DNA of 44,397 bases. Origin: Candidatus Heimdallarchaeota archaeon (GTDB taxonomy: Archaea; Asgardarchaeota; Wukongarchaeia; Wukongarchaeales; JBHIFL01). The notes under the pieces were generated by a model. It made no database searches and was not told the origin of the DNA. It saw nothing but the letters and a program-made list of their open reading frames with translations. The stretch lies in NCBI GenBank assembly GCA_046761065.1, contig JBHIFL010000036.1, positions 1-44,397 on the forward strand, given 5' to 3'. This document shows positions 139 through 44,397 of the stretch, one piece after another (within the stretch, counting starts at the first letter, position 1; every line of letters begins with the position of its first letter). Position numbers and translations under genes: made by a program.

Positions 139-1740
139 TTATCTTCTTTTTTTTATAAATTGGAGGAGGTTTTTCTTCCGCCGCTCAGGAATGGGAATAC
201 CAATATTATAGCCTAAAAAGTCCACATACATTTGAAGTCTGCTCTGATACTCGTACTTCCTCGATAAAAGACGCGTAATCCCATTTTTCGCTGCCAAAAC
301 ATCTAGGGCTTTGTGAGTTCCAGCGCCAAACTGAGTGGCAAGTTTCGGACGCTTATAGATTTGAGCGGGGAGGCCTAGATCCTTTGCTACAAGCCGCAAG
401 ATATGTTTCCGGATGTAATTTGAATTCTCTTTGAAGATTTTATACTCTGTTGGAAGCTGCAATAGAAATTGCAACACAATACGATCCAAATATGGAAACC
501 CGAATTCAACACGAGTTGCTGTTGAGATCGCATACTCTCTTTGTAATCCTATTGAAAGACCAAAGACGTCGTTTTGCAAAGATGAATGTAATTCGATGTA
601 TCCTTCTGTTTCCAAAATACTTATATATCTCCTGTAGCCTCCTAAACTTTCATCTGCACCCTGACCACAAAGAACTATGACCTTTCCTTCGCGTTTCGCA
701 AGTTGTGTGGCAAAAAAGAGGGGGATAGCGATTGCCAGGTTCATGGGATGCGGTTCTTCTAAAGCCATAAGAATTTGTGGGAGAGCAGATTCTACCGTAT
801 CCAGGTCTAACTGAACGATATGGAGTGGGAGGTCGAGGATCGCTGCAGCGTGCCTGGCGTGAACCAAGTCCTTAGAATTCGAAACCCCTGCACAGTAGAG
901 CACAATATCTGCTTCAAGATCTTTCCCAATTTTTGCGAGGATTGAGCTATCCAATCCCCCTGAAAAAAGAATTCCGAGCTCTCCAATCCCAATTAGTTTC
1001 TTTATTGCGGTGTACAGGAGTTCTCGAAGGTTTTTCCGCGCGTCATCTAGGGGAATCGTGGAGGGTGGTGTTCTTTTTAATTCTAAACCGCTGCTATGTT
1101 GTTGCATACTTTTCGGGTCAAGAATAACGATTTGGCGTGGATTCACCAATATTGGATGTTGTATTCTTAAGGACCACAAGGCTTTTCGTTCAGATGCAAA
1201 CGCGAATGCATCCTCTGTTTTTCCTAAATAAAGAGCTTTCACACCTACGGGGTCTCTTGCAATTAGAATTTTTCCTCGAGTCAAAATAGCAATGGCGTAG
1301 ATCCCATCCAGCTTTGCAAGGGTTTGTTTCATGGCTTGGATCAGGGTTGCTTGCTTAATGTGTGCTTCAAATAAATTGAGGATTGCTTTAACAGCCATCC
1401 CTCCATTCATATGGCTGCATGGAACTTGATTAGTTATTTCGTGCTGATTATAGATCTGACCATTAAATACTATAGCCGATCCCTTGTCTCCTATCACAGG
1501 TTGTTCTTGTTGTAGCGATTCATGACAATCTTTAAGCCACATCCCCCCGATTCCTATCTTTCCTTCAAGATTAGAAAGGTTAAGATCTTCAATTCTATTT
1601 GCATATGAACAAGCTTTCTCAACACAAATACCGACATGCTGCTCCCTCCCTTGGGCGAGAACCTGCATCATCTTGATAAGCAGATTACCCGTCGCCTTCT
1701 TATCTTCAGATAGGATCCCGGCTATTGAGAACATGCCCAT
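139..1740 (-). CDS. asnB: Asparagine synthetase B-like protein (Ntn GATase-II fold plus PP-loop synthetase domain); the N-terminal catalytic Cys appears absent
   Basis: Motifs FNGQIYN, ARDPVGVKALY, FASERKAL, LFSGGLDSS (PP-loop), GQGADE, PYLD and RPK. The N-terminus reads MFSIAGI rather than MCGIAG. Confidence 0.85.
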   Translation of the reverse strand: MGMFSIAGILSEDKKATGNLLIKMMQVLAQGREQHVGICVEKACSYANRIEDLNLSNLEGKIGIGGMWLKDCHESLQQEQPVIGDKGSAIVFNGQIYNQHEITNQVPCSHMNGGMAVKAILNLFEAHIKQATLIQAMKQTLAKLDGIYAIAILTRGKILIARDPVGVKALYLGKTEDAFAFASERKALWSLRIQHPILVNPRQIVILDPKSMQQHSSGLELKRTPPSTIPLDDARKNLRELLYTAIKKLIGIGELGILFSGGLDSSILAKIGKDLEADIVLYCAGVSNSKDLVHARHAAAILDLPLHIVQLDLDTVESALPQILMALEEPHPMNLAIAIPLFFATQLAKREGKVIVLCGQGADESLGGYRRYISILETEGYIELHSSLQNDVFGLSIGLQREYAISTATRVEFGFPYLDRIVLQFLLQLPTEYKIFKENSNYIRKHILRLVAKDLGLPAQIYKRPKLATQFGAGTHKALDVLAAKNGITRLLSRKYEYQSRLQMYVDFLGYNIGIPIPERRKKNLLQFIKKRR

Positions 1741-2151
1741 TTCCCTTACTATTTCACATATTCGTCTGTTTGATGAAATATCTTGTTAAAAATAAAAGAT
1801 TCCCCAAATTACTATTATACGTTGTATGCTCCTAGGACCGATTCCCCAAGGTTAGATAGGTGACATACGATCCAGTCCTTTTTGTACTTCATAGGATGAT
1901 GTTAGTTCGTTCAAGATGGAAAGATGATAGGAATGTTTTAAATCAGCTTCTCCCGCTATACTTTTAATCATGAAAATACACATCAATTGTTAGCGTGAGA
2001 TGTGAAGTATTTAGAGGTGTTGTGTACCTGTAAAGGCTCTAAAAATCCGACTTAGGTGTCCGTACTACTTTAAATTTGGATGATTTGACAGGATTTTCGT
2101 CTTACCACCTTCTAATTTGATCTCATATTGAAATGATTTGCTTGTTGTTCT

Positions 2152-2844
2152 TCACTGTTCACCTTCTTGTTCCAAGCGTTTGAGTAGCTCCAAAGGAACT
2201 TCATAAACAACTTCTCTTGCCATTTTATCCGCTAAACCGGCACCTTTAGCAACTTTTAACGCTTTATCGGCATCAATTAATTCAATGGAATGGCAATCTG
2301 TATTAACAAGTAGTTTCGCTTCCACATCACGTGCTAAGCGAGCTATGTGACCATTTGTCAGGCAATGGCCTTGACGATAGGTCAATTCAAGGAACTTTTC
2401 CTGATCCCTCGCAAGTTCAGCTTGGTTTTTTGTGATGAGCCCAGGATGCGCCAGAATATCCACGTCCTCAGCTTTGAGCACTGCATCATTAGTCCCAGGA
2501 ATCCCGGGTTCTACGAGCGTTTCGCCATGAACTAATACAAGCTGGGCTCCTAATTTCTTTGCGTGAGTTGCTAACTCGGCAATCTTTACTGGGCGTACAT
2601 AGGATATCTCTACTCCGACAATGATTGAGATCTCCTCTAGCCAAGGATCAACCGCCTTCTTCAGCGAATGGATCACCTGTTCCAGATTTGAGTGATCAAC
2701 ATGATCTGTAATTGCAATAGCAGGTAGTCCTATTACGACTGCTCTTCTTGCAAGCTCACTTGGGAGCAACTCTCCATCAGAAAAAATACTATGGATATGA
2801 AAATCACACCACACTTGTTCCACGCCTCTATTTAACCAAAACAT
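2152..2844 (-). CDS. PHP-domain phosphoesterase (archaeal histidinol-phosphatase-like family)
   Basis: DFHIHSIFSDG, AITDH, GVE, HGET, ILAHPG and NTDCH metal-binding motifs. The true start may be GTG at 2823 or 2814. Confidence 0.85.
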   Translation of the reverse strand: MFWLNRGVEQVWCDFHIHSIFSDGELLPSELARRAVVIGLPAIAITDHVDHSNLEQVIHSLKKAVDPWLEEISIIVGVEISYVRPVKIAELATHAKKLGAQLVLVHGETLVEPGIPGTNDAVLKAEDVDILAHPGLITKNQAELARDQEKFLELTYRQGHCLTNGHIARLARDVEAKLLVNTDCHSIELIDADKALKVAKGAGLADKMAREVVYEVPLELLKRLEQEGEQ

Positions 2845-3183
2845 ACTTGATTACCCACGAACCGAACAGATACTATGCTTTTAGTTTTTTTTCACCTATA
2901 TGAAAATCTGAAAATGCTATAAAACCATTATTAAGATGGTTGCTTTATTGACATTTCCCCGAGCAGGCTTATGACTCAGGATCTCAACTTGAGGGGTGGA
3001 ACGCTTGTACGACATGATTGATAATGCGAAAATTTACATGAGTATGCCACTTCTAAATGGCTTCATGAATTACTTTTAAAAAGAAAAAAACAAAGGGGAG
3101 GGATTTGTGCCTGTATCCCACATTTAATGGTGAGTTGACGATTTCTGACGATTCTTCAAGCCGAATTGTTGTGCTGATATGCT

Positions 3184-3747
3184 CTAGATTGGCATCTCTG
3201 GCAGGATTGCATAAAGGAATAGCAATGTCAGGCCTGATCCAAGGAAAACGACGAAGACCCACCCAAGTTCGATGAGAAACGCTGAGATTGATGCAAAGAA
3301 AATGACGGCAAGGATAACAGAAACGATGTACCCCGTTGGGTCACGACGAAGCTGCAATGGTGACATATGTTGGTAAGTTTCTACAGAAAAGATTTCAAGA
3401 CTTGCAATGAGAAGGCCAATAGTAGGGCGATTAAAAGCAGTTTCACCCAGATGTAGGAGAATAAAGCCAATCACAGGTAAAAGAAGTGCAAAGAATAGGC
3501 CATTGGTTGTGGCGTAAGTGAGGGGGTTCCGTTCTTTAACGATGATAGGAAATGGGAGTGTTAAGGCAAATAAGAAGATGAGGAAAAGGACTTCATTCCT
3601 GTAATCCACTGTAATATTGGGACTGTAAAGACTAATCGCAAAGGCGACTAGAAGTAAGAAGAGGAGATATATCATTATCTGTGCGGGAAAGCGTAGGCGA
3701 TACGCTTCTTCCAAACGATCAGTTACTTCGATTTCTTCATCAGCCAT
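3184..3747 (-). CDS. Hypothetical multi-pass membrane protein
   Basis: About 6 hydrophobic segments. ATG at 3747 is preceded by a GAGGTGG SD-like motif, and the gene follows 3762-4685 directly. Confidence 0.7.
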   Translation of the reverse strand: MADEEIEVTDRLEEAYRLRFPAQIMIYLLFLLLVAFAISLYSPNITVDYRNEVLFLIFLFALTLPFPIIVKERNPLTYATTNGLFFALLLPVIGFILLHLGETAFNRPTIGLLIASLEIFSVETYQHMSPLQLRRDPTGYIVSVILAVIFFASISAFLIELGWVFVVFLGSGLTLLFLYAILPEMPI

Positions 3748-3761
3748 GAAACCACCTCGAC

Positions 3762-4685
3762 TCATCTGACTGTCTGAGCGATATTTTGAGCGCGCCACAT
3801 CATCAGGGTACGCGCGTGGCGCTTGCGCCAGCTCAAGGCTTGGAGTTGGATGCTACGGATGACGTAGAAGAGCTCACGGGGAAACGGCATATTGCGAAAC
3901 ATGATAAATTGCTTTTTCCCCGTAAAGATTCGGATATTGCCCCGGGGGATCTTGGCAAAGAAATTCCAGATCTTCTGTACGCGAGTGATATCCAAATCCG
4001 CTTCGCGGATGCTGCCTCGGGAGACCCGTCCACTCATTTCGTCTGCAAAGGAGGTGTCGTAGGTGACACCGCTCCGAGCACCGACTACCAAAGCGTAACG
4101 CTCACGCGCCCAAGCTTTTACTAGATTGTCTATTGCATCCACAAGGATTATGCTCATCACTAGGAGGAAAAGGAGGAAAATCTGCCAGTTGATTTCCGGT
4201 GGGAGGCGGGCCTCAAGTGAACTCCGCAGAGGGCCAATATTGAATATCGTCAGGGCACTGATAATTAAAGCAATGATGAAGATGCCATAAACTGTGAAGA
4301 ACTCCATGTGCGTCAAGAAGGGATGCTGATAGCCACCGTAGAGGAGATCATCATTTTTCGTAATCCTTGAAGCGCGATCAATGTCGTGTTCGGTCAAGAA
4401 TAGGAGAGGGTCAAGCAAGACATAGTAACCCCCCTTCTTCGAGAGCAAGATACCGCGATCTACCAGCGCATCGAGAGCATTTTCAAGTTCTTCCTCGGAC
4501 ATATTAAGTTCGGGCGATTTCTTGAGCAATTCGTTTACTCGGAAATGGCGTTCATCCAGATAGTGTGTTGTTATTGCGGTAACAACGCCTGCAAGTTGTT
4601 TTCTGATAGGATCAAAAGAGTAACGAAGACCGAATCCAAAAGCAAAGCCTATGACAGCAAGTGCAAGTAATAATGGAAATGACAT
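3762..4685 (-). CDS. Hypothetical membrane protein with a winged-helix-like segment and a C-terminal soluble domain
   Basis: N-terminal TM, then MSEEELENALDALVDRGILLSKKGGYYVL (wHTH recognition helix plus wing), then two further TMs. Confidence 0.65.
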   Translation of the reverse strand: MSFPLLLALAVIGFAFGFGLRYSFDPIRKQLAGVVTAITTHYLDERHFRVNELLKKSPELNMSEEELENALDALVDRGILLSKKGGYYVLLDPLLFLTEHDIDRASRITKNDDLLYGGYQHPFLTHMEFFTVYGIFIIALIISALTIFNIGPLRSSLEARLPPEINWQIFLLFLLVMSIILVDAIDNLVKAWARERYALVVGARSGVTYDTSFADEMSGRVSRGSIREADLDITRVQKIWNFFAKIPRGNIRIFTGKKQFIMFRNMPFPRELFYVIRSIQLQALSWRKRHARTLMMWRAQNIAQTVR

Positions 4686-4964
4686 TTTGAATACCCAATT
4701 TTGTTTTTCTTATTGAAAACCTGCGTTTTAATTTGTATCGCAGGATATAAACATTATTGTTTTTTCGGTTATAATAAGGTCCAACACTTGTTGATCAGAA
4801 AACCAGATAAGCATTATTGAGATCCCTTTAATTTCAAGTATTATATTTCTTTCTTATGAATAATAAGGAAAAGTATTGTATTGAGTTGAAAAGAGATTAA
4901 CATGCCTTATATATTGTCCAGATATGGTGTATTTACTTACGAGAAAATGGAATCGAAGCGATTA

Positions 4965-5405
4965 TTAGCTAGTTACTTCGGACGAGAGAGAGAAAGCGCG
5001 GGGAAGAAGCTCACTAAGCTTCTTTATATGGCAAGAATCATAGGATCCATGTTTATCCCCAATGATTACTAGTAAATCTTTGTTTTTTCCTTTAACAAAT
5101 TGCCAAAGGACTTGGCGACAGGCGCCACAGGGAGGAAATAGAATATCTTGATTACTGACTACTGCAACGGCCTTGAACTCTTGTTCACCTCTTGAAACGG
5201 CATTGAACACTGCGACACGTTCAGCACAAATGCCTAAATTCGCGACATCATTCTCGATATTACAGCCAGTATAAATCGTGCCATTTCTCCCAAGTAGGAC
5301 CGCCCCTACTTGTATGCCAGTTAAAGTGTAGGCTTTATTCCTAACTTCAAGTGCTTTTTGAAGTAAGCGCTTAATTTCTGCATCTGAGAGTTCTTTTGAC
5401 TCCAT
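4965..5405 (-). CDS. cdd: Cytidine deaminase
   Basis: VGAVLL, GCNIEN, CAERVA and PCGACRQ zinc-binding motifs of the homotetrameric Cdd family. Confidence 0.93.
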   Translation of the reverse strand: MESKELSDAEIKRLLQKALEVRNKAYTLTGIQVGAVLLGRNGTIYTGCNIENDVANLGICAERVAVFNAVSRGEQEFKAVAVVSNQDILFPPCGACRQVLWQFVKGKNKDLLVIIGDKHGSYDSCHIKKLSELLPRAFSLSSEVTS

Positions 5406-7995: not shown

Positions 7996-8850
7996 TTAAA
8001 ATTGAAGTGCTCGATATTTTGCTCTGAGCGGCTCAATTTTTGCCCGATTTTTCATGTATCGCGAACCACTGGCAATAATCCAGCCATGTAAATGCTCACT
8101 AAATTCATCTCTTGCGAATCGACTTCGTTCAACAGAATCAAAGGTAATTGAGACGTTTCCCGGTGTAAATTTCCCATTTAGACCGCAAATTGCGCATGTT
8201 ATTCCTTTCTCACTAATTCGAATAAGATCACTATGACATGCGGGACAGAACCCTTGTTCCCCATCTACATGAAACTCCCTCTCATTCTCGTTTCTTCGGA
8301 GTGCTTCTACAATATTACTGCCAATTTGATTGGCGCGTATGACGAAAGCTTCATTGAGGAGCACTTCACCAGGTCCTGGACTATCTGCAAGCATAGCATC
8401 AACTAATTTGAGACCCCAACTAAGAACAAATAGGTTCAAGGTTGGTAAAGTCATAGGTGCCCAGTCCCGACGCCCCGCTACTGCAATTGAAGCTCCAACC
8501 TTGTTATCAAATAAGCCAGCTTCTAGACGAAGTGCCACTTGGAGAATTCGATCCAGAATCAATTTGATAATGGCTGTAGAGCTGTAAATATATGTGGGCG
8601 CGCCTACAATGATGCCATCCGCTTCTAAAATTTTTTCTACAAGAAATTCGAAGTCATCTTCAATTCGACATGCTTCTCCTTTGATAACGCATGCCATACA
8701 ACCTTTACACGATTTCAGAGATAGATCCGTTAAACGAATCAACTCAAGTTCAGAAGCTCCAGCTTGTTTTGCCCCCAAGAGGGCTTCTTTTACAAGACAT
8801 TCCGTATTTCCTGCCTTTCTCCATGAACCGATCAAACCTAATACTTTCAA
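7996..8850 (-). CDS. Flavodoxin-like iron-sulfur flavoprotein (NADPH-dependent FMN reductase family) with a C-terminal Zn ribbon
   Basis: GSWRKAGNT FMN-binding loop, CKGCMAC-x6-C cluster motif, ADGIIVGAPTY, C-terminal CPAC...CAIC. Confidence 0.85.
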   Translation of the reverse strand: MKVLGLIGSWRKAGNTECLVKEALLGAKQAGASELELIRLTDLSLKSCKGCMACVIKGEACRIEDDFEFLVEKILEADGIIVGAPTYIYSSTAIIKLILDRILQVALRLEAGLFDNKVGASIAVAGRRDWAPMTLPTLNLFVLSWGLKLVDAMLADSPGPGEVLLNEAFVIRANQIGSNIVEALRRNENEREFHVDGEQGFCPACHSDLIRISEKGITCAICGLNGKFTPGNVSITFDSVERSRFARDEFSEHLHGWIIASGSRYMKNRAKIEPLRAKYRALQF

Positions 8851-9063
8851 CTCAAGTCTCCAATCATTTACAAATTTGAAGATGCTTCATAAGTTCTACG
8901 TTTAGTGTTGAAGGTTATGATGATAAGGACTTACTAGGTCACCAATTCTCTGAACGGTAACCTATTAAGTTATGAGAAGGCATCGAGGTTCGTGTGATTA
9001 AATTTATAAATAACAAAGGATTATTAGCAAGAACACGTTCTTAAATAATCAAGAGGTAGTTCT

Positions 9064-11421: not shown

Positions 11422-12468
11422 CTATGGCCTTTGCGTGTGTCTCCGGGTTAACAAATAGCTGAGCCCATACGTTGCCCCCAAACTCGCATAAGCAGCGATC
11501 AAGAGACTACTGATGAGATCGTAATTAGCCCACAGGGCCAGCCTAAGTCCTAAAAGAAAGATCGTTATGCTAAACATCCACTTGGTAATCTCACGTGGGT
11601 TTTCATCTGGCATAAGAGCCATACGCTCGCGCCGTGGGGCTTGGTTCAAGCCAGGGAGCTCTAATTTAGGGGCTTGACCTTCACAAGTGAGGCTGCAAGG
11701 CAATTCGGTGTTTTCAGTCCCACCTGATTCCACTAGGTGGCCTGTAGTGATTACCGATTTCCCCCGATTTCCAAACGCCATTCGCGCGGGAAGCCGCTCT
11801 GGTCCCTCACCGTTCCCCACCAGCTCGTGTTCGGGGATGAGGACGCTTCCTGGGTGATCATCCGCTTCGTCTGCAACCACCAGGCCTTCTAGGAGAGCGA
11901 ACTCAGCGGCTTCTCTCTTTCCCTTAAACCTAGAACCTCTCGATAAGTCTAGATCAGAGTTTTCCGCAGCTTCGCTCGAGGACTCTTTGCCTTCGCTTTT
12001 CAGTGCTAAGGGATCGAGAGCCTCGTGCTCTGAGGTAGGGGCTTCTGGCGCCCCTTCACCTCCGATATCAAGCCTAGTACCACTCGAGACGCTTCCCCGC
12101 GCCTCCGGACCTCCGGTCTCAAGCTCATCTCGCTTCCTTGCCGGATCAGAGAGGACTAAGCCTTTAAACTTCTGTTTGGCATACCGGCTCCGCCCATACT
12201 TGCGGGCAATTCGCTTATGAGAATCCGGCACCACCCGACCCGGATCGGAGAACCCGGCCTCCCACGAGGTTCCGGAAAAGATGGCCACATCTATAAGAAT
12301 CACCTGCGTATCGGCATCCTTAAATCGCCACGTGGTCTTTGTCGCAAGCCCCCGCCCCGTCTTCGGGGAGTATCCGGTCCATGTGAGGATTGTTAACGTG
12401 TCCTCCTCCAGCTGGACCGCGGTGCCGTTAGGTTTTGGCTTCGGAACCTCCAACCTTTCACCTATCAT
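11422..12468 (-). CDS. Hypothetical protein with a low-complexity middle region and two C-terminal TM helices
   Basis: 348-aa ORF with a purine-rich SD (GGAGAGGGGAG) upstream. C-terminal hydrophobic pair WMFSITIFLLGLRLALWA / LISSLLIAAYASLGATYGLSYLL. Confidence 0.65.
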   Translation of the reverse strand: MIGERLEVPKPKPNGTAVQLEEDTLTILTWTGYSPKTGRGLATKTTWRFKDADTQVILIDVAIFSGTSWEAGFSDPGRVVPDSHKRIARKYGRSRYAKQKFKGLVLSDPARKRDELETGGPEARGSVSSGTRLDIGGEGAPEAPTSEHEALDPLALKSEGKESSSEAAENSDLDLSRGSRFKGKREAAEFALLEGLVVADEADDHPGSVLIPEHELVGNGEGPERLPARMAFGNRGKSVITTGHLVESGGTENTELPCSLTCEGQAPKLELPGLNQAPRRERMALMPDENPREITKWMFSITIFLLGLRLALWANYDLISSLLIAAYASLGATYGLSYLLTRRHTQRP

Positions 12469-12599
12469 GGAGCTCTCTCCCCTCTCCTGCTTGGTTGATT
12501 GTTGTGGGCGTTCTCCGTCATGGAAACCACTCTTCTGTCTCCCCGGAAGACCCTCGGCGTTTCTCTAGGCAACTTCCCATTCCCAACTTCATTTCCCGT

Positions 12600-12778
12600 T
12601 ATTATAGCCTTCCACAGTACCGTATTGCAGCCCTACAGTACCGTATTATAGACCTCTACAATATCCCATACTCACTATTGTAGCCCTACAGTAACTCAGA
12701 CCCACCTATTGTAGACCTCTACAGGACGGTTTGTAGACCTCCACATTATCTTACCTACGCGTATTGTAGACCTCTACA
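12600..12778. repeat. Array of 7 palindromic direct repeats, consensus TATTGTAGACCTCTACA
   Basis: Copies start at 12600, 12623, 12644, 12676, 12707, 12730 and 12762. The core TGTAGA-CC-TCTACA is an inverted repeat (short variant TGTAG-CC-CTACA). Linkers are 6 bp or 15-16 bp. Confidence 0.9.
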
Positions 12779-12839
12779 TTATCTCATTACTCACCACTTT
12801 GACTATGATTGCCCCGTTCCAAATGACATGAGTCGGGGA

Positions 12840-13496
12840 TTACTCCTCACCCCGTAATGGGGCTTCCTCTAATGTCACCTGACGCTCGAGGGTAGCTGCC
12901 TGTGGGTCGATGATCGCATACCGCCGCTTCAGGGCACTCCGCGGCTCCCCGGTCCAGTCACTCACCCCACACACCTGCCGGTGCGGATCGCTTACGGGGA
13001 CCTGGAAATGGGCGGTCACCAACCAGTCGTCTCGGCTCAATGGGGGGAGGGTGTCGGGGCGTTCCTCCCGCAGTTGCGCCTTCAGGCGGCGCAGGGCATG
13101 GCGAGTCCTTCGCCCCTGGTTGGCCGCAATCGCACGTTCCAGCCCGATCCCGTCGCCATGCACCACCAGGACGTAGTTGTCCCTGCACCAGAGCCAGGCG
13201 TGCGGCTTGAGGATCAGGCCCGATTGCCAGAACTTGGTCATGATGCTGGCGTCGTGATTCCCCGGGAGGAGGAGGGTCCGTTTCAACAGGCCCAGCTCCT
13301 GTAACTCATCCCGCAGCGCGTAGAAGAGGGCGAACACCTCCTCCACCTGCCCGTACTTCAACTCCAACGTGTCTCCGGCTAGGATCAGCGTGTCAATCTC
13401 CTCGCACCGCCGCCGGATCTCCGCCACCCCGAGCTCGTAGTGGGATCGCGGGTTGCCAAGATGGAAATCCCCGAACATAAAGATCTTTTTGGACAT
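12840..13496 (-). CDS. Calcineurin-like metallophosphoesterase
   Basis: GDFH, AGD, GNHD, HGD and AH motifs. The start was reassigned to ATG 13496 (MSKKIFMFGDFH), preceded by a GAGGTGG SD. Confidence 0.88.
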   Translation of the reverse strand: MSKKIFMFGDFHLGNPRSHYELGVAEIRRRCEEIDTLILAGDTLELKYGQVEEVFALFYALRDELQELGLLKRTLLLPGNHDASIMTKFWQSGLILKPHAWLWCRDNYVLVVHGDGIGLERAIAANQGRRTRHALRRLKAQLREERPDTLPPLSRDDWLVTAHFQVPVSDPHRQVCGVSDWTGEPRSALKRRYAIIDPQAATLERQVTLEEAPLRGEE

Positions 13497-13513
13497 TTCG
13501 CAAACCACCTCTT

Positions 13514-15832
13514 TTACACCACCCGGCGGAGGACCTGGCGGAGAGTCCCATGGGCCCGCGGGGAGTACCCGCGCACTAGGGCCCGCAACCACACACACGC
13601 CTCGCAGTACATGCGACACCGGCAGGTGGTGAGGTTGTTTCGGGTCACCTCCAGGATCGCCTTGAGGTGCTCAAAGAGCTGTTTGCTCGCCCCGGTGGGC
13701 CCGCCCCGGTCGAAGATCAGCAATTCATAGCCCCGCCGGCGCTCATCGCCGAGGGGAAGGACGTCCAACTCCCCGGGGTCGAGGGCTAACTCCTCCTTCG
13801 CCGCGCGGAGCACGGCCGCGCCGAGGTGGAGGGCCTCGTGGAGGGTGAATCGATGGCCCTTGAGCCGGATCGTGAGCCCTTCCGTCCGATACAGCGCATA
13901 CCGCCCCCCGCTCTCACTCTGCTTCTTCTCCACGAGTTCATGGGTCTGGAGATTTCGGGTAATTAGGGTCTTCACCACTAGCAGCATCTCGAGTTCCCCA
14001 AACCACGCGACCACCCGTCCTCGTGGATGGGCCGCCCATGTCCCCCACCCCTTCCGGATCTCTCGTTCAACCGGATTCTTAGAGTAATATCGTTTGGTCG
14101 TTTCTTCCACAATGACCTCCTCTCTCGTGACCTCGACCACTTTCCAGACTCGCTTCCCCAGCAGTAAATAGTTCCCCGGCAGACCAGTTTGCGCTACCTT
14201 CTCGAGGTCAATGTACCCCACTAGCTTCCCGCTCCGGGTTCGCACCCGTAGCTCTGGCAAGGCAGTCATTAGCCCCAACGTGAAAAACACCTCCTCACTC
14301 TTCTTGAGATGCGTCTGGAACTCCCCCTCCGTCCGCTGGACGAGCCCCTCAGCCAAGTAGTCCGTCAGGACTTCAGTGACCTTCTCGTCCAGGTACTCCG
14401 GTTGGGTGAAGGGGAAGAGCCAGGTAAAGTCCTGCTGCGTGAGCCCCAGCGCCCCACACAGGAACAGGGCACTCCGAAGGAGCTTCTCGCTGAAGTATGT
14501 GTAGTCGACTGGTTCAGGCTCAAGCCGCTCCACCAACTCCTGTAACTTGTCCCGGTGTTCCAGATAGTAGCTGTCCATCCGTCCCTTGATCGTGAGAAAC
14601 CAGTACACCTCCCCGGTCTGCTCGGGATGCCGGGCAACCCGCATGATCTCTTGGTGCAGCCCTCGTTTGCCTCCACTTGGGAATCCGAGGATAATCAAGA
14701 GTTCCAGGTGACCAAAATTGAGCCCGGCTTCCACCGCCCGCGTGACTAATAAGCCCCGCACCTGCCCTGCTCGGAACCGCTGCAGCATCTGCCGCTTCTC
14801 AGCCCAGGGTAAGTCCCCGTGGATGATCCCAAAATTACAGGCTATCAGCTCTTTCAGGACCGCCGCCCGTTCCAGCAGGAATTTGTTATCCGCATAGATC
14901 ACTACCTGCTTGCCGGCATAGATCGTCCCCCTTTTTAAGTGATCCAGAAACCGATCGAACACCGTGATTCTCCCCTCCGTCCTGTCCACCCGCCCCGTGT
15001 CCAACCCGTACGTATAGAGCCGGATGGTCCCATGCCGGGCCTTCCCCCGCACCACCGCCGCGTTATCCAAGAGCTGCTGGGCTAACTCCTCCGCATTGGG
15101 GATGGTCGCACTGTTGAACACCACCCGGAGCGGCTGCTGCGTCACCTCGGCATTGTATTTCTTGAGGATCCGATATACGGCGAGCAGGTACGCTAGGCTG
15201 TACCCGCTATAATAGTCCACTTCATCACAGACCAGCATCCAGGGGCTGGTTAGTGTCCGCACCCACCCCTCCTCTCCCCAAACAAGGGCCCGGTACAACG
15301 TGTCCTTCCACATGTACAGGGTCATCAGGAGAATGTCGAGCTCCCCCCGACTTGCCGCCTCCCGGATCTTCCGGCGCTCCTTCCGATTCAGGTCGGTCGT
15401 GTACCGCGCGATGCGTAACTGCCCGTCCATCAGGGCCGCATTGTGCTCCCGGAACCGGGCCTCTTGATCGAACAGCAGAGCGTTGTTCGGAAACAGGTAT
15501 AAGGCGACCCGCCCTGCCGCCGCAAACCCCTCGCCATCTGGGTCCCCCGTCCCCCGCTCGCGTTTGAGGTTCTCTTCGCAGACCACGGTGTACGTCACCT
15601 CGGTCTTCCCTGTCGCGGTCCCCGACGCATTCACAACGTCCCGCTCCTCTACTACCCGCAAGAAAGCCTCCTGGCTCTTGAACACGCTCCACCCATAGAT
15701 CGCCTCGATTCGAGGACCTACATGGGGGAGGAGCTTAGCCCACGGGGTGACGCTATCCTCCCCATCCGAGCGGGGATACACCGCCTCCGCCAATAGGTTC
15801 TTCAATATCAATTCTTCAGTCATCCTCTTCAC
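13514..15832 (-). CDS. YprA/Hrq1/SftH-like SF2 helicase with C-terminal DUF1998 (MZB) Zn-binding domain
   Basis: Motif I SGTATGKT, Ia FPNNALLFDQ, II DEVDYYSG, III SATIPN, V EAGLNFG, VI QEIMRVAR. C-terminal IFDRGGPTGASKQL...CRCRMYCEAC. Confidence 0.85.
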   Translation of the reverse strand: MKRMTEELILKNLLAEAVYPRSDGEDSVTPWAKLLPHVGPRIEAIYGWSVFKSQEAFLRVVEERDVVNASGTATGKTEVTYTVVCEENLKRERGTGDPDGEGFAAAGRVALYLFPNNALLFDQEARFREHNAALMDGQLRIARYTTDLNRKERRKIREAASRGELDILLMTLYMWKDTLYRALVWGEEGWVRTLTSPWMLVCDEVDYYSGYSLAYLLAVYRILKKYNAEVTQQPLRVVFNSATIPNAEELAQQLLDNAAVVRGKARHGTIRLYTYGLDTGRVDRTEGRITVFDRFLDHLKRGTIYAGKQVVIYADNKFLLERAAVLKELIACNFGIIHGDLPWAEKRQMLQRFRAGQVRGLLVTRAVEAGLNFGHLELLIILGFPSGGKRGLHQEIMRVARHPEQTGEVYWFLTIKGRMDSYYLEHRDKLQELVERLEPEPVDYTYFSEKLLRSALFLCGALGLTQQDFTWLFPFTQPEYLDEKVTEVLTDYLAEGLVQRTEGEFQTHLKKSEEVFFTLGLMTALPELRVRTRSGKLVGYIDLEKVAQTGLPGNYLLLGKRVWKVVEVTREEVIVEETTKRYYSKNPVEREIRKGWGTWAAHPRGRVVAWFGELEMLLVVKTLITRNLQTHELVEKKQSESGGRYALYRTEGLTIRLKGHRFTLHEALHLGAAVLRAAKEELALDPGELDVLPLGDERRRGYELLIFDRGGPTGASKQLFEHLKAILEVTRNNLTTCRCRMYCEACVWLRALVRGYSPRAHGTLRQVLRRVV

Positions 15833-43728: not shown

Positions 43729-44397
43729 TTAGGGTTGGAGCTCTTGAATCTCTTTTCGCATAGCATGCAATAGATTATTTCGTCCTTCTTCATTTCCTAT
43801 GGAAGTTTTATCATCCTTTATGTTATGTTGACTACCTTTTCTTAAAAATTCAACTGCTTGTATTTTACCGTTTTTTACCAGTAAGCGAACCAGATAACCT
43901 TCAACAGGATGAGAACCGTCTGACAACTCTTTCTGGAGTTCAAGTCTTTCTTCCTTGACACCTAAAAGTTGTACTTCTTTTCTCACAATCGTGTAAAGCA
44001 TATTCTCGGATATAATAAATTCACGTATATAGCCAAATGGAACGCTGAATTCTTTTAGTACCTCCTCAAGAGTTTTGTTAATAACCGTTGTGATTTTCTC
44101 AGTGGCTTTATCCTTTATTTTTTCCTTTTTAGCTTCGATATATTCATTAGGAGGCATTTCGGGCATAATATGTGGTTCTTGTGGGGTTTTGGGTGTTTCA
44201 ATTACAGGTTCGCTTTCAATAACTTCGGCTTCGGTGATTTGATGATGTTCTACCTCTGTGAAAGGTGGAAATTTCATGGCAGATAGAAGTTCTTCTGCTT
44301 CTTCAAATGAAAGCCCATGTTGAGTTTTTGATTCTGGCGTTACTACCTCCTCCTCCCCAACCGCTACCTCCTCCTCCTCAACCGCTACCTCCTCCTC
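43729..44397 (-). CDS. Hypothetical acidic protein, 5'-truncated by the window edge
   Basis: The frame is open from 44397 (EEEVAVEEEEVAVGEEEVV...) through the ORF-track segment 43729-44277. Confidence 0.65.
   Translation of the reverse strand, partial: EEEVAVEEEEVAVGEEEVVTPESKTQHGLSFEEAEELLSAMKFPPFTEVEHHQITEAEVIESEPVIETPKTPQEPHIMPEMPPNEYIEAKKEKIKDKATEKITTVINKTLEEVLKEFSVPFGYIREFIISENMLYTIVRKEVQLLGVKEERLELQKELSDGSHPVEGYLVRLLVKNGKIQAVEFLRKGSQHNIKDDKTSIGNEEGRNNLLHAMRKEIQELQP
44344..44397. repeat. 21-bp coding tandem repeat (EEEEVAV units)
   Basis: CAACCGCTACCTCCTCCTC repeated with a 21-bp period up to the window end. Confidence 0.75.

Follow-up and report, generated by a model that had tools for sequence, protein, structure and literature searches.

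A seven-box palindromic array upstream of an Asgard archaeal membrane-protein gene as a candidate PadR-family operator set

To our knowledge, transcription-factor sites in Asgard archaea are almost uncharted. Archaeal Lrp-like control regions offer one point of reference, such as that of Ss-LrpB, in which three phased 15-bp boxes are bound cooperatively and the DNA is wrapped or bent. Plasmid parC arrays offer another; these short tandem repeats lie directly upstream of a gene, are bound by ParR, and double as an operator. Published operators of PadR-family regulators are ATGT/ACAT inverted repeats lying 8-10 nt apart (PMC3506622), and the operator in the crystal structure of Bacillus subtilis PadR with DNA reads CNTGNA-N6-TNCANG (PMC5728393). 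Among the neighbours of the locus studied here is a putative operon of the ARAMP (Asgard RAMP) type, systems that are without a known array or substrate (PMC8730458).

The window analysed is the whole 44,397-nt stretch of contig JBHIFL010000036.1, and it contains an array of seven palindromic boxes with the core TGTAGACCTCTACA and the box consensus TATTGTAGACCTCTACA. The box can be read as TGTA-GACCTC-TACA, that is, TGT-AGACCTCT-ACA (TGT-N8-ACA), which agrees with the half-site geometry of PadR operators; the spacer is 2 bp shorter in two of the seven copies. As argued below from sequence comparisons, the array is probably the upstream control region of a neighbouring 348-aa gene, with its seven boxes as operators of a winged-helix regulator from the PadR family.

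Architecture and genomic setting of the array

The array spans positions 12600-12778, with boxes starting at 12600, 12623, 12644, 12676, 12707, 12730, and 12762. A sequence-only reading of this DNA had reported these repeats with start-to-start distances of 23, 21, 32, 31, 23, and 32 bp, and its coordinates match exactly. With flanks, the dyad reaches ~20 bp (TA-N-TGTAGA-CC-TCTACA-N-TA), while the non-palindromic box centre (ACCT) keeps the same orientation in all seven copies, each on the + strand. Boxes 5 (12707-12723) and 7 (12762-12778) have perfect cores and read TATTGTAGACCTCTACA, the latter being followed by the linker TTATCTCATTACTCACC up to position 12795. One core mismatch each is found in box 3 (TATTATAGACCTCTACA, 12644-12660), which with its flanks forms the 20-bp palindrome TATTATAGA-CC-TCTACAATA, and in box 6 (TTTGTAGACCTCCACA, 12730-12745). 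The cores of boxes 2 (TATTGCAGCCCTACA, 12623-12637) and 4 (TATTGTAGCCCTACA, 12676-12690) are shorter by 2 bp, at 12 bp (TG[C/T]AGCCCTACA / TGYAGCCCTACA). Box 1 (TATTATAGCCTTCCACA, 12600-12616), the copy closest to the 348-aa gene, is the most degenerate (TATAGCCTTCCACA; position-weight score 22 bits). Cores thus measure 12-14 bp and the linkers between boxes 5-19 nt, and the three long linkers resemble each other, as had been noticed before.

The significance of the array was assessed with the pattern TGTAGNCCTCTACA, allowing up to two mismatches, over the whole 44-kb window and in 100 shuffles. Six matches were found as compared to 0.65 expected, all within 12647-12778, and none of the 100 shuffles reached six. 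A repeat search of the window also recovered the box family, together with a 53-55-bp higher-order duplication (D2, D3). The dyad centres are separated by 22, 22, 31, 32, 22, and 33 bp. At 10.7 bp per turn these distances give a phase concentration R of 0.95 (P ~0.006 after a pitch search from 10 to 11), and at 10.5 bp per turn an R of 0.72 (P ~0.06 against random spacings of 20-34 bp). The earlier proposal that helical phasing places the boxes on one DNA face is therefore plausible and only moderately supported.

Local GC content dips to 0.42 at the array as compared to 0.55-0.62 in the flanks. As RNA, both strands of the array form more stable folds than shuffled sequences do (z = -2.5 and -3.8), a trivial consequence of the repeated palindromes, and a search of Rfam returned no match for the array.

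The host genome is 4.4 Mb in size with ~40% GC, and the window is GC-rich from ~11.4 to 23.5 kb. Along the minus strand the order is a 1473-aa ORF, a DEAD/Helicase_C/MZB helicase, a calcineurin-like phosphoesterase, the array, and the 348-aa ORF (P0001). The phosphoesterase (12840-13619, minus strand; Pfam Metallophos) is the last gene of a putative Cas1-helicase-phosphoesterase (ARAMP) operon. The Cas1 label is itself putative here; Pfam and NCBIfam detected no Cas1 domain in the 1473-aa ORF. With the phosphoesterase stop codon at 12840, the end of the array lies at most 62 bp from the 3′ end of the operon. A short hairpin (CCCC-GTAAT-GGGG, within 12800-12860) overlaps this stop codon, and on the minus strand no T-run terminator is present in the sequence between the stop codon and the array.

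The previous description of the array as downstream of the Cas1 operon is literally true, and equally the array lies upstream, on the 5′ side, of the co-directional P0001 gene (11422-12468, minus strand; ATG at 12468), its likely regulated target. The phosphoesterase is a neighbour of the array and falls outside the module to which the array belongs. A weakly TATA-like element, CAACAATCAACC (12493-12504, minus strand), is located 25-36 nt before the P0001 ATG and aligns with CCTTAAAATAAAC and CATAATCAACC in front of a paralogue and an orthologue of the gene (contigs C93 and L070; alignment A4). We take it as the putative core promoter of the 348-aa gene. The distance from the array to the ATG is 132-310 bp, and that to the TATA-like element, which the array precedes, is about 90-270 bp. 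No tRNA gene, as an att-site origin would suggest, was found anywhere in the window. At its far end (44343-44397), the window breaks off within a 21-bp tandem repeat, CTACCTCCTCCTCCCCAACCG, which is present in 2.6 copies with 97% matches and lies inside a minus-strand open frame.

Association of the array with the 348-aa gene

P0001 has a conserved N-terminal domain of ~105 aa with no assigned function, which a low-complexity acidic linker joins to a C-terminal membrane segment. It has no match in Pfam, PADLOC, NCBIfam, or the PDB, and no homologue in 399 other Asgard genomes. Two paralogues are encoded in its own genome, on contigs C93 and C4, and an exhaustive HMMER search identified an 86%-identical orthologue (P0002) on contig L070 from another metagenome. 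In L070, positions 1349-5323 after the 348-aa gene hold a 179-aa ORF and a gene for an MmeI-like N6-methyltransferase/restriction protein (777 aa), neither of which occurs in the genome studied here (G000).

Contig L070 begins inside an array, and the three boxes that it retains are collinear with window boxes 1-3 at an overall DNA identity of 86%. Both linkers and boxes are collinear over these three comparable units. The counterpart of box 1 reads TGTGGATGTCTATAATAA, and that of box 2 is a perfect palindrome, TGTAGGGCTACA, and thereby better than box 2 of the window. Homology between the two sequences ends 23 nt past the stop codon of the P0001 gene, and the module of the 348-aa gene sits in a different neighbourhood in L070.

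A related arrangement is found at the C93 paralogue (locus L068; gene at 8479-8991, + strand, 170 aa), which is 49% identical to P0001 over residues 3-146. Upstream of this gene, at 8190-8390, lies an array of seven or eight 24-bp units TG[A/T/C]AAGSCTTGCGTTATGAGATAR, and a TATA box is found ~30 nt before the ATG. The C93 core (TG[A/T]AAGSCTTGC, or in palindromic form GYAAGSCTTRC) occurs nowhere else in the genome, and this array shows no helical phasing (R = 0.31). The promoter-proximal 100 nt of the window locus (contig C36), C93, and L070 align with one another (A4). In addition, ATGAGATAATG is common to the long linkers of C36 and the linkers of C93, and the linker after box 7 holds its reverse complement; this 11-mer occurs eight times in the genome, three of them in the C36 and C93 arrays. 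Such homology of both linkers and promoters points to descent of the two arrays from one ancestral array-plus-gene module, which would also explain why the long linkers are similar to each other.

By these comparisons the array appears to belong with the 348-aa gene and not with the Cas1 operon. An operator for this gene was among the options offered by the sequence-only reading, and it gains support from the boxes kept with the gene in L070 and from the homologous array at C93. The same reading favoured duplication of the units over spacer acquisition and called for a check of linker polymorphism. The L070 linkers show no turnover over the three units and the linkers are homologous to those at C93, in agreement with duplication.

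A role for the neighbouring operon had also been put forward, with the boxes as transposon ends, as sites for an integrase (Cas1), or as a CRISPR-like mini-array built by a Cas2-less Cas1. The short distance from the array to the 3′ end of the putative Cas1 operon speaks for such a role, as does the lack of a known array or substrate for ARAMP systems. The genome, however, contains a second ARAMP-like operon, on C12 (L067, 5803-12678, minus strand), which encodes a 1302-aa protein, a 762-aa helicase, and a 240-aa Metallophos protein and is followed by an FTR1 iron permease gene. The 1302-aa protein is 41% identical to the 1473-aa ORF over the C-terminal part of the latter (residues 891-1426). 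This second Cas1-like/helicase/phosphoesterase operon has no repeat array, and the box motif, which had been expected beside homologous Cas1 loci, is missing there; judged by this one homologous operon, the array does not behave as a component of an ARAMP island, and the suggested link to Cas1 or other island proteins gains no support. Further Asgard matches lie on short contigs, and a related-locus search with the helicase returned no relatives.

The individual forms of the idea fare no better. CRISPR arrays have repeats of ~23-50 bp and unique spacers of similar length, whereas here repeats of 12-14 bp are separated by linkers of 5-19 nt that are related to each other and show no turnover between the window and L070 over the three comparable units. 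For transposon or casposon terminal repeats, an inverted partner would be expected at the other edge of the island or elsewhere in the window, but no box was found in the window outside 12600-12778. Further arrays of the same box are on other contigs, where they front ordinary promoters at loci without any cas gene. We consider a Cas1, CRISPR, or transposon function of the boxes scarcely credible.

Shared boxes and a candidate regulator

The whole assembly was searched with the box, both by word and by position-weight scan. Strong matches in the 4.4-Mb genome are confined to four arrays, namely the one on C36 and clusters at C7:45578-45643 (three boxes), C32:45241-45336 (four boxes), and C76:18346-18400 (three boxes). 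In each array all copies share a single orientation. Spacings at C32 are 28, 32, and 22 bp, and across the three additional clusters they are 22 and 28-32 bp. The C7, C32, and C76 loci are mutually homologous over 270-450 nt and form promoter modules (L009, 7540-8250, for C7; L010, 11200-11900, for C32; L011, 9750-10480, minus strand, for C76). Each module comprises three or four TAGTGTAGACCTCTACAGTA boxes and, 15-25 bp downstream of them, a GAAAGCTTAAAATAGG BRE/TATA element. The conserved leader that comes next, ~150 nt in length, contains a CCTCCCTC/GGGGGG hairpin as well as GGAGG-ATG, and it is followed by a small membrane-protein ORF (MGIRDSTGSPP...) in the modules of C7 and C32; the next genes at C7 are Rce1-like and TldD/PmbA peptidase genes. 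The location of the boxes just upstream of BRE/TATA at C7, C32, and C76 therefore marks the box as a promoter-associated element. The neighbourhoods of these three arrays have no regulator gene in common, so that a factor acting in trans is to be expected.

Isolated TGTAG-N2-4-CTACA words were considered as additional sites and rejected; two of the four checked fall within long ORFs, and such words are about as frequent as chance predicts. Close relatives yielded no matches to the motif, the family being represented by this genome only and the class by three genomes, and the five genomes closest to it in phylogeny or in the similarity of their PadR showed no such arrays. The same 14-mer is present in three bacterial metagenome contigs (L049, 4780-5000, minus strand; L048, 780-960; L050, 690-800, minus strand), which we judged to be probably unrelated, a chance identity of a short word. 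The bacterial contigs carry 21-bp tandem repeats with TGTAGACCTCTACA, in up to 11 copies, beside CHASE2 adenylate/guanylate cyclase or MacB-type genes.

The promoter association bears on the possibility that an integrated mobile element uses the boxes as iterons or as a centromere-like site, for the origin of its replication or for partition. Direct repeats at roughly two-turn spacing, a locally lower GC content, and a position at the edge of a GC-rich island would all be in keeping with such a site. Against it, no Rep, Orc1/Cdc6, ParA, or ParB-like gene is found among the ORFs adjoining the array, the GC content falls only to 0.42, and identical boxes lie upstream of BRE/TATA elements at three chromosomal loci and inside PadR promoters (see below). 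Additionally, the high GC of P0001 is intrinsic to its gene family wherever the gene is located, so P0001 need not belong to the island, nor the array to a mobile element. The iteron option of the sequence-only reading is thus, in our estimation, highly improbable.

The four arrays also allow us to weigh a functionless origin, in which one or two ancestral operator sites underwent tandem duplication, the copies are decaying or have survived fortuitously, and no more than one or two of them matter. The 53-55-bp higher-order duplication, the degenerate or shortened boxes 1, 2, and 4, and the relatedness of the linkers by descent are what such a process would leave behind. Yet all four loci with multi-box arrays have kept the box orientation and reuse spacings of 22 and 28-33 bp, and L070 retains its boxes, including the better palindrome at box 2, at 86% overall DNA identity. 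Units are also more alike within than between arrays, which suggests continuing homogenisation. We regard mere decay as improbable.

A candidate for the factor in trans comes from other Asgard archaea. Many genomes of another Asgard family contain the exact 14-mer, each in a single copy, and there it is always the first of three tandem boxes (TGTAGACCTCTACA, GTAGAGCTCTACA, GTAGGTGTCTACA) between TTTATA and the ATG of a gene for a 192-aa protein. This protein scores 66.7 bits against the Pfam PadR model and its orthologue in the present genome 47.1 bits, at a cut-off of 27. The orthologue (212 aa) is encoded at C23:21344-21979 (L076, 3342-3980, minus strand). An Lrp/AsnC gene lies directly upstream of it, and a further PadR-type paralogue of 150 aa with a Cys-rich tail is encoded on C64.

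Orthologous PadR promoters were collected by querying with the protein of the present genome, which kept the retrieval free of bias from the box. In 18 of 29 promoters from several Asgard families (L077-L106), the TATA element is directly followed by [AGT]TAG-N4-CTA[CT] boxes, one to three in number, as compared to a 5% background in 133-nt windows from the same loci. Several of the first boxes read exactly GTAGACCTCTAC. The promoter of the closest orthologue (62-65% identity) holds ATAGAGGTCTAC, the inverse of window box 3. PadR orthologues with a changed recognition-helix sequence carry other boxes (GTAGAGATAACAAT). In the stereotyped promoter, a TTTATATA box precedes two or three tandem GTAG-N4-CTAC boxes, which have spacings of 20-22 and 16 bp and are followed by the ATG, and in these autoregulated promoters the boxes overlap the start site. 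In the present genome the PadR promoter has the variant boxes AGTAGTTATCTACA and TATAGATATCTATA and not the exact word, which is found in promoters of PadR orthologues. Because orthologous promoters of this gene carry the same box, the C23 PadR is the best candidate and the likely binder of the array, rather than Cas1 or SAP-Cas7. The dimeric protein anticipated earlier from the dyad core would fit well with this PadR operator geometry.

Alternatively, the product of the adjacent gene may bind the boxes itself, its N-terminal domain being a new DNA-binding module with a basic helix and a membrane tether that regulates its own gene, in the manner of ParR. The N-terminal domain (residues 1-110; alignment A2) is conserved in a small uncharacterised family, for which 1.8 billion proteins yielded ~15 representatives; most of these stand alone and are 105-170 aa long. 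The basic segment SHKRxARxxGRERxxKxRF contains the invariant residues of the domain, and a confident AF2 model (pLDDT 85) predicts a five-stranded sheet and a basic helix at residues 82-96. One homologue, P0004 (913 aa), contains 15 repeats of a 50-residue portion of the domain and matches the chromatin protein Cren7 weakly. The shared ancestry of the C36 and C93 arrays combined with their private cores is also what co-evolution of a protein with its sites should produce. PadR binding does not account for the private core at C93, a hint that the adjacent gene product might determine specificity.

Self-binding is not backed by the domain model, which matches no DNA-binding fold and has no convincing match in the PDB (Foldseek best E 0.057; VIA best Z 5.8, to generic GNAT-like sheets); we would count the absent fold match itself as neither for nor against DNA binding. 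More distant homologues of the 348-aa protein have no arrays upstream at the loci checked, and the same box fronts three unrelated genes. Self-binding would also leave as coincidence the identity of the C36 box with PadR-promoter boxes across Asgard families. Taken together, we deem binding by the adjacent gene product rather unlikely.

For the favoured PadR reading, we infer from sequence both the binding itself and its outcome, that is, the sign of regulation and a roadblock role. Each box, (TA-N-)TGTAGA-CC-TCTACA(-N-TA), would accommodate one PadR dimer reading two adjacent major grooves. Dimers two or three helical turns apart would be on roughly one DNA face and possibly cooperative, and the C-terminal coiled coil of the Asgard PadR orthogroup may aid such cooperation. 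The seven boxes would then form a high-avidity platform, probably a cooperative one, and the loaded array could set transcription of the 348-aa gene. As no T-run terminator precedes the array, a loaded array could also act as a roadblock against read-through into P0001, thereby insulating the 348-aa gene from the ARAMP operon. Boxes over the start site, as in the autoregulated PadR promoters, would imply classical repression. The boxes at C36, C7, C32, and C76 are instead upstream of the TATA element, and so the sign of control could go either way, with activation, or repression by spreading or looping, as candidate modes.

Several observations weigh against the PadR reading. The regulator is assigned solely through the identity of promoter boxes in orthologues, the array lies far upstream of a poor TATA-like element, unlike the boxes of autoregulated PadR promoters, and the cores of boxes 2 and 4, shorter by 2 bp, would alter the half-site spacing. 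The variant boxes in the promoter of the C23 gene itself, the private core at C93, and the lack of such arrays in the five nearest genomes count against it as well. A bolder view, which we hold to be unlikely, has two versions. Either a coiled-coil PadR would polymerise on a phased seven-site pad and, in the role of roadblock or insulator, bring transcription of the array-less ARAMP Cas1 operon to an end while coupling the neighbouring membrane-protein gene to that operon, or the 348-aa family would be a new membrane-tethered DNA-binding factor co-evolving with its private array (C36 versus C93).

Comparison with known operator systems

These results bear on two systems. For ARAMP, the array, donor end, or target that this array-less Cas1 system lacks is not to be found in the repeat cluster and should be sought elsewhere. 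For Asgard transcription, the data suggest a conserved PadR-type regulator whose operator word can be read as GTAG-N4-CTAC, often GTAGACCTCTAC. Its promoter is stereotyped and apparently autoregulated, with a TATA box ahead of two or three boxes. Within the present genome, a small putative regulon of membrane-protein genes appears to be equipped with unusually large multi-box arrays, and the C23 protein and its boxes are a candidate protein-DNA pair that is directly testable.

Like Ss-LrpB-type regions, the array combines several helically phased palindromic boxes. Its box sequence and half-site spacing nonetheless fit PadR and not the Lrp consensus, and no Lrp gene is linked to the arrays. 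With parC/ParR it shares tandem repeats directly upstream of a gene, but it differs in that no partition ATPase or actin-like gene is present and the box is used at several unrelated chromosomal promoters.

The closest likeness is to bacterial PadR operators (padC; LmrR at lmrCD and lmrR; bcPadR1/2; C. difficile PadR1; PMC3506622, PMC5728393, PMC5050560), with which the array has TGT/ACA half-sites 8 nt apart in common. One dimer per dyad, boxes in the regulator's own promoter, and the common presence of at least two sites are further features of the bacterial systems that the array would share. By sequence geometry and promoter association, the array qualifies as a PadR-family operator set, with binding predicted. 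In the characterised bacterial cases one or two sites overlap the core promoter, whereas here seven co-oriented copies are spread over 180 bp far upstream of it. The array further differs from those cases in its archaeal machinery (TBP/TFB) and in its regulator, which belongs to a lineage-specific Asgard orthogroup.
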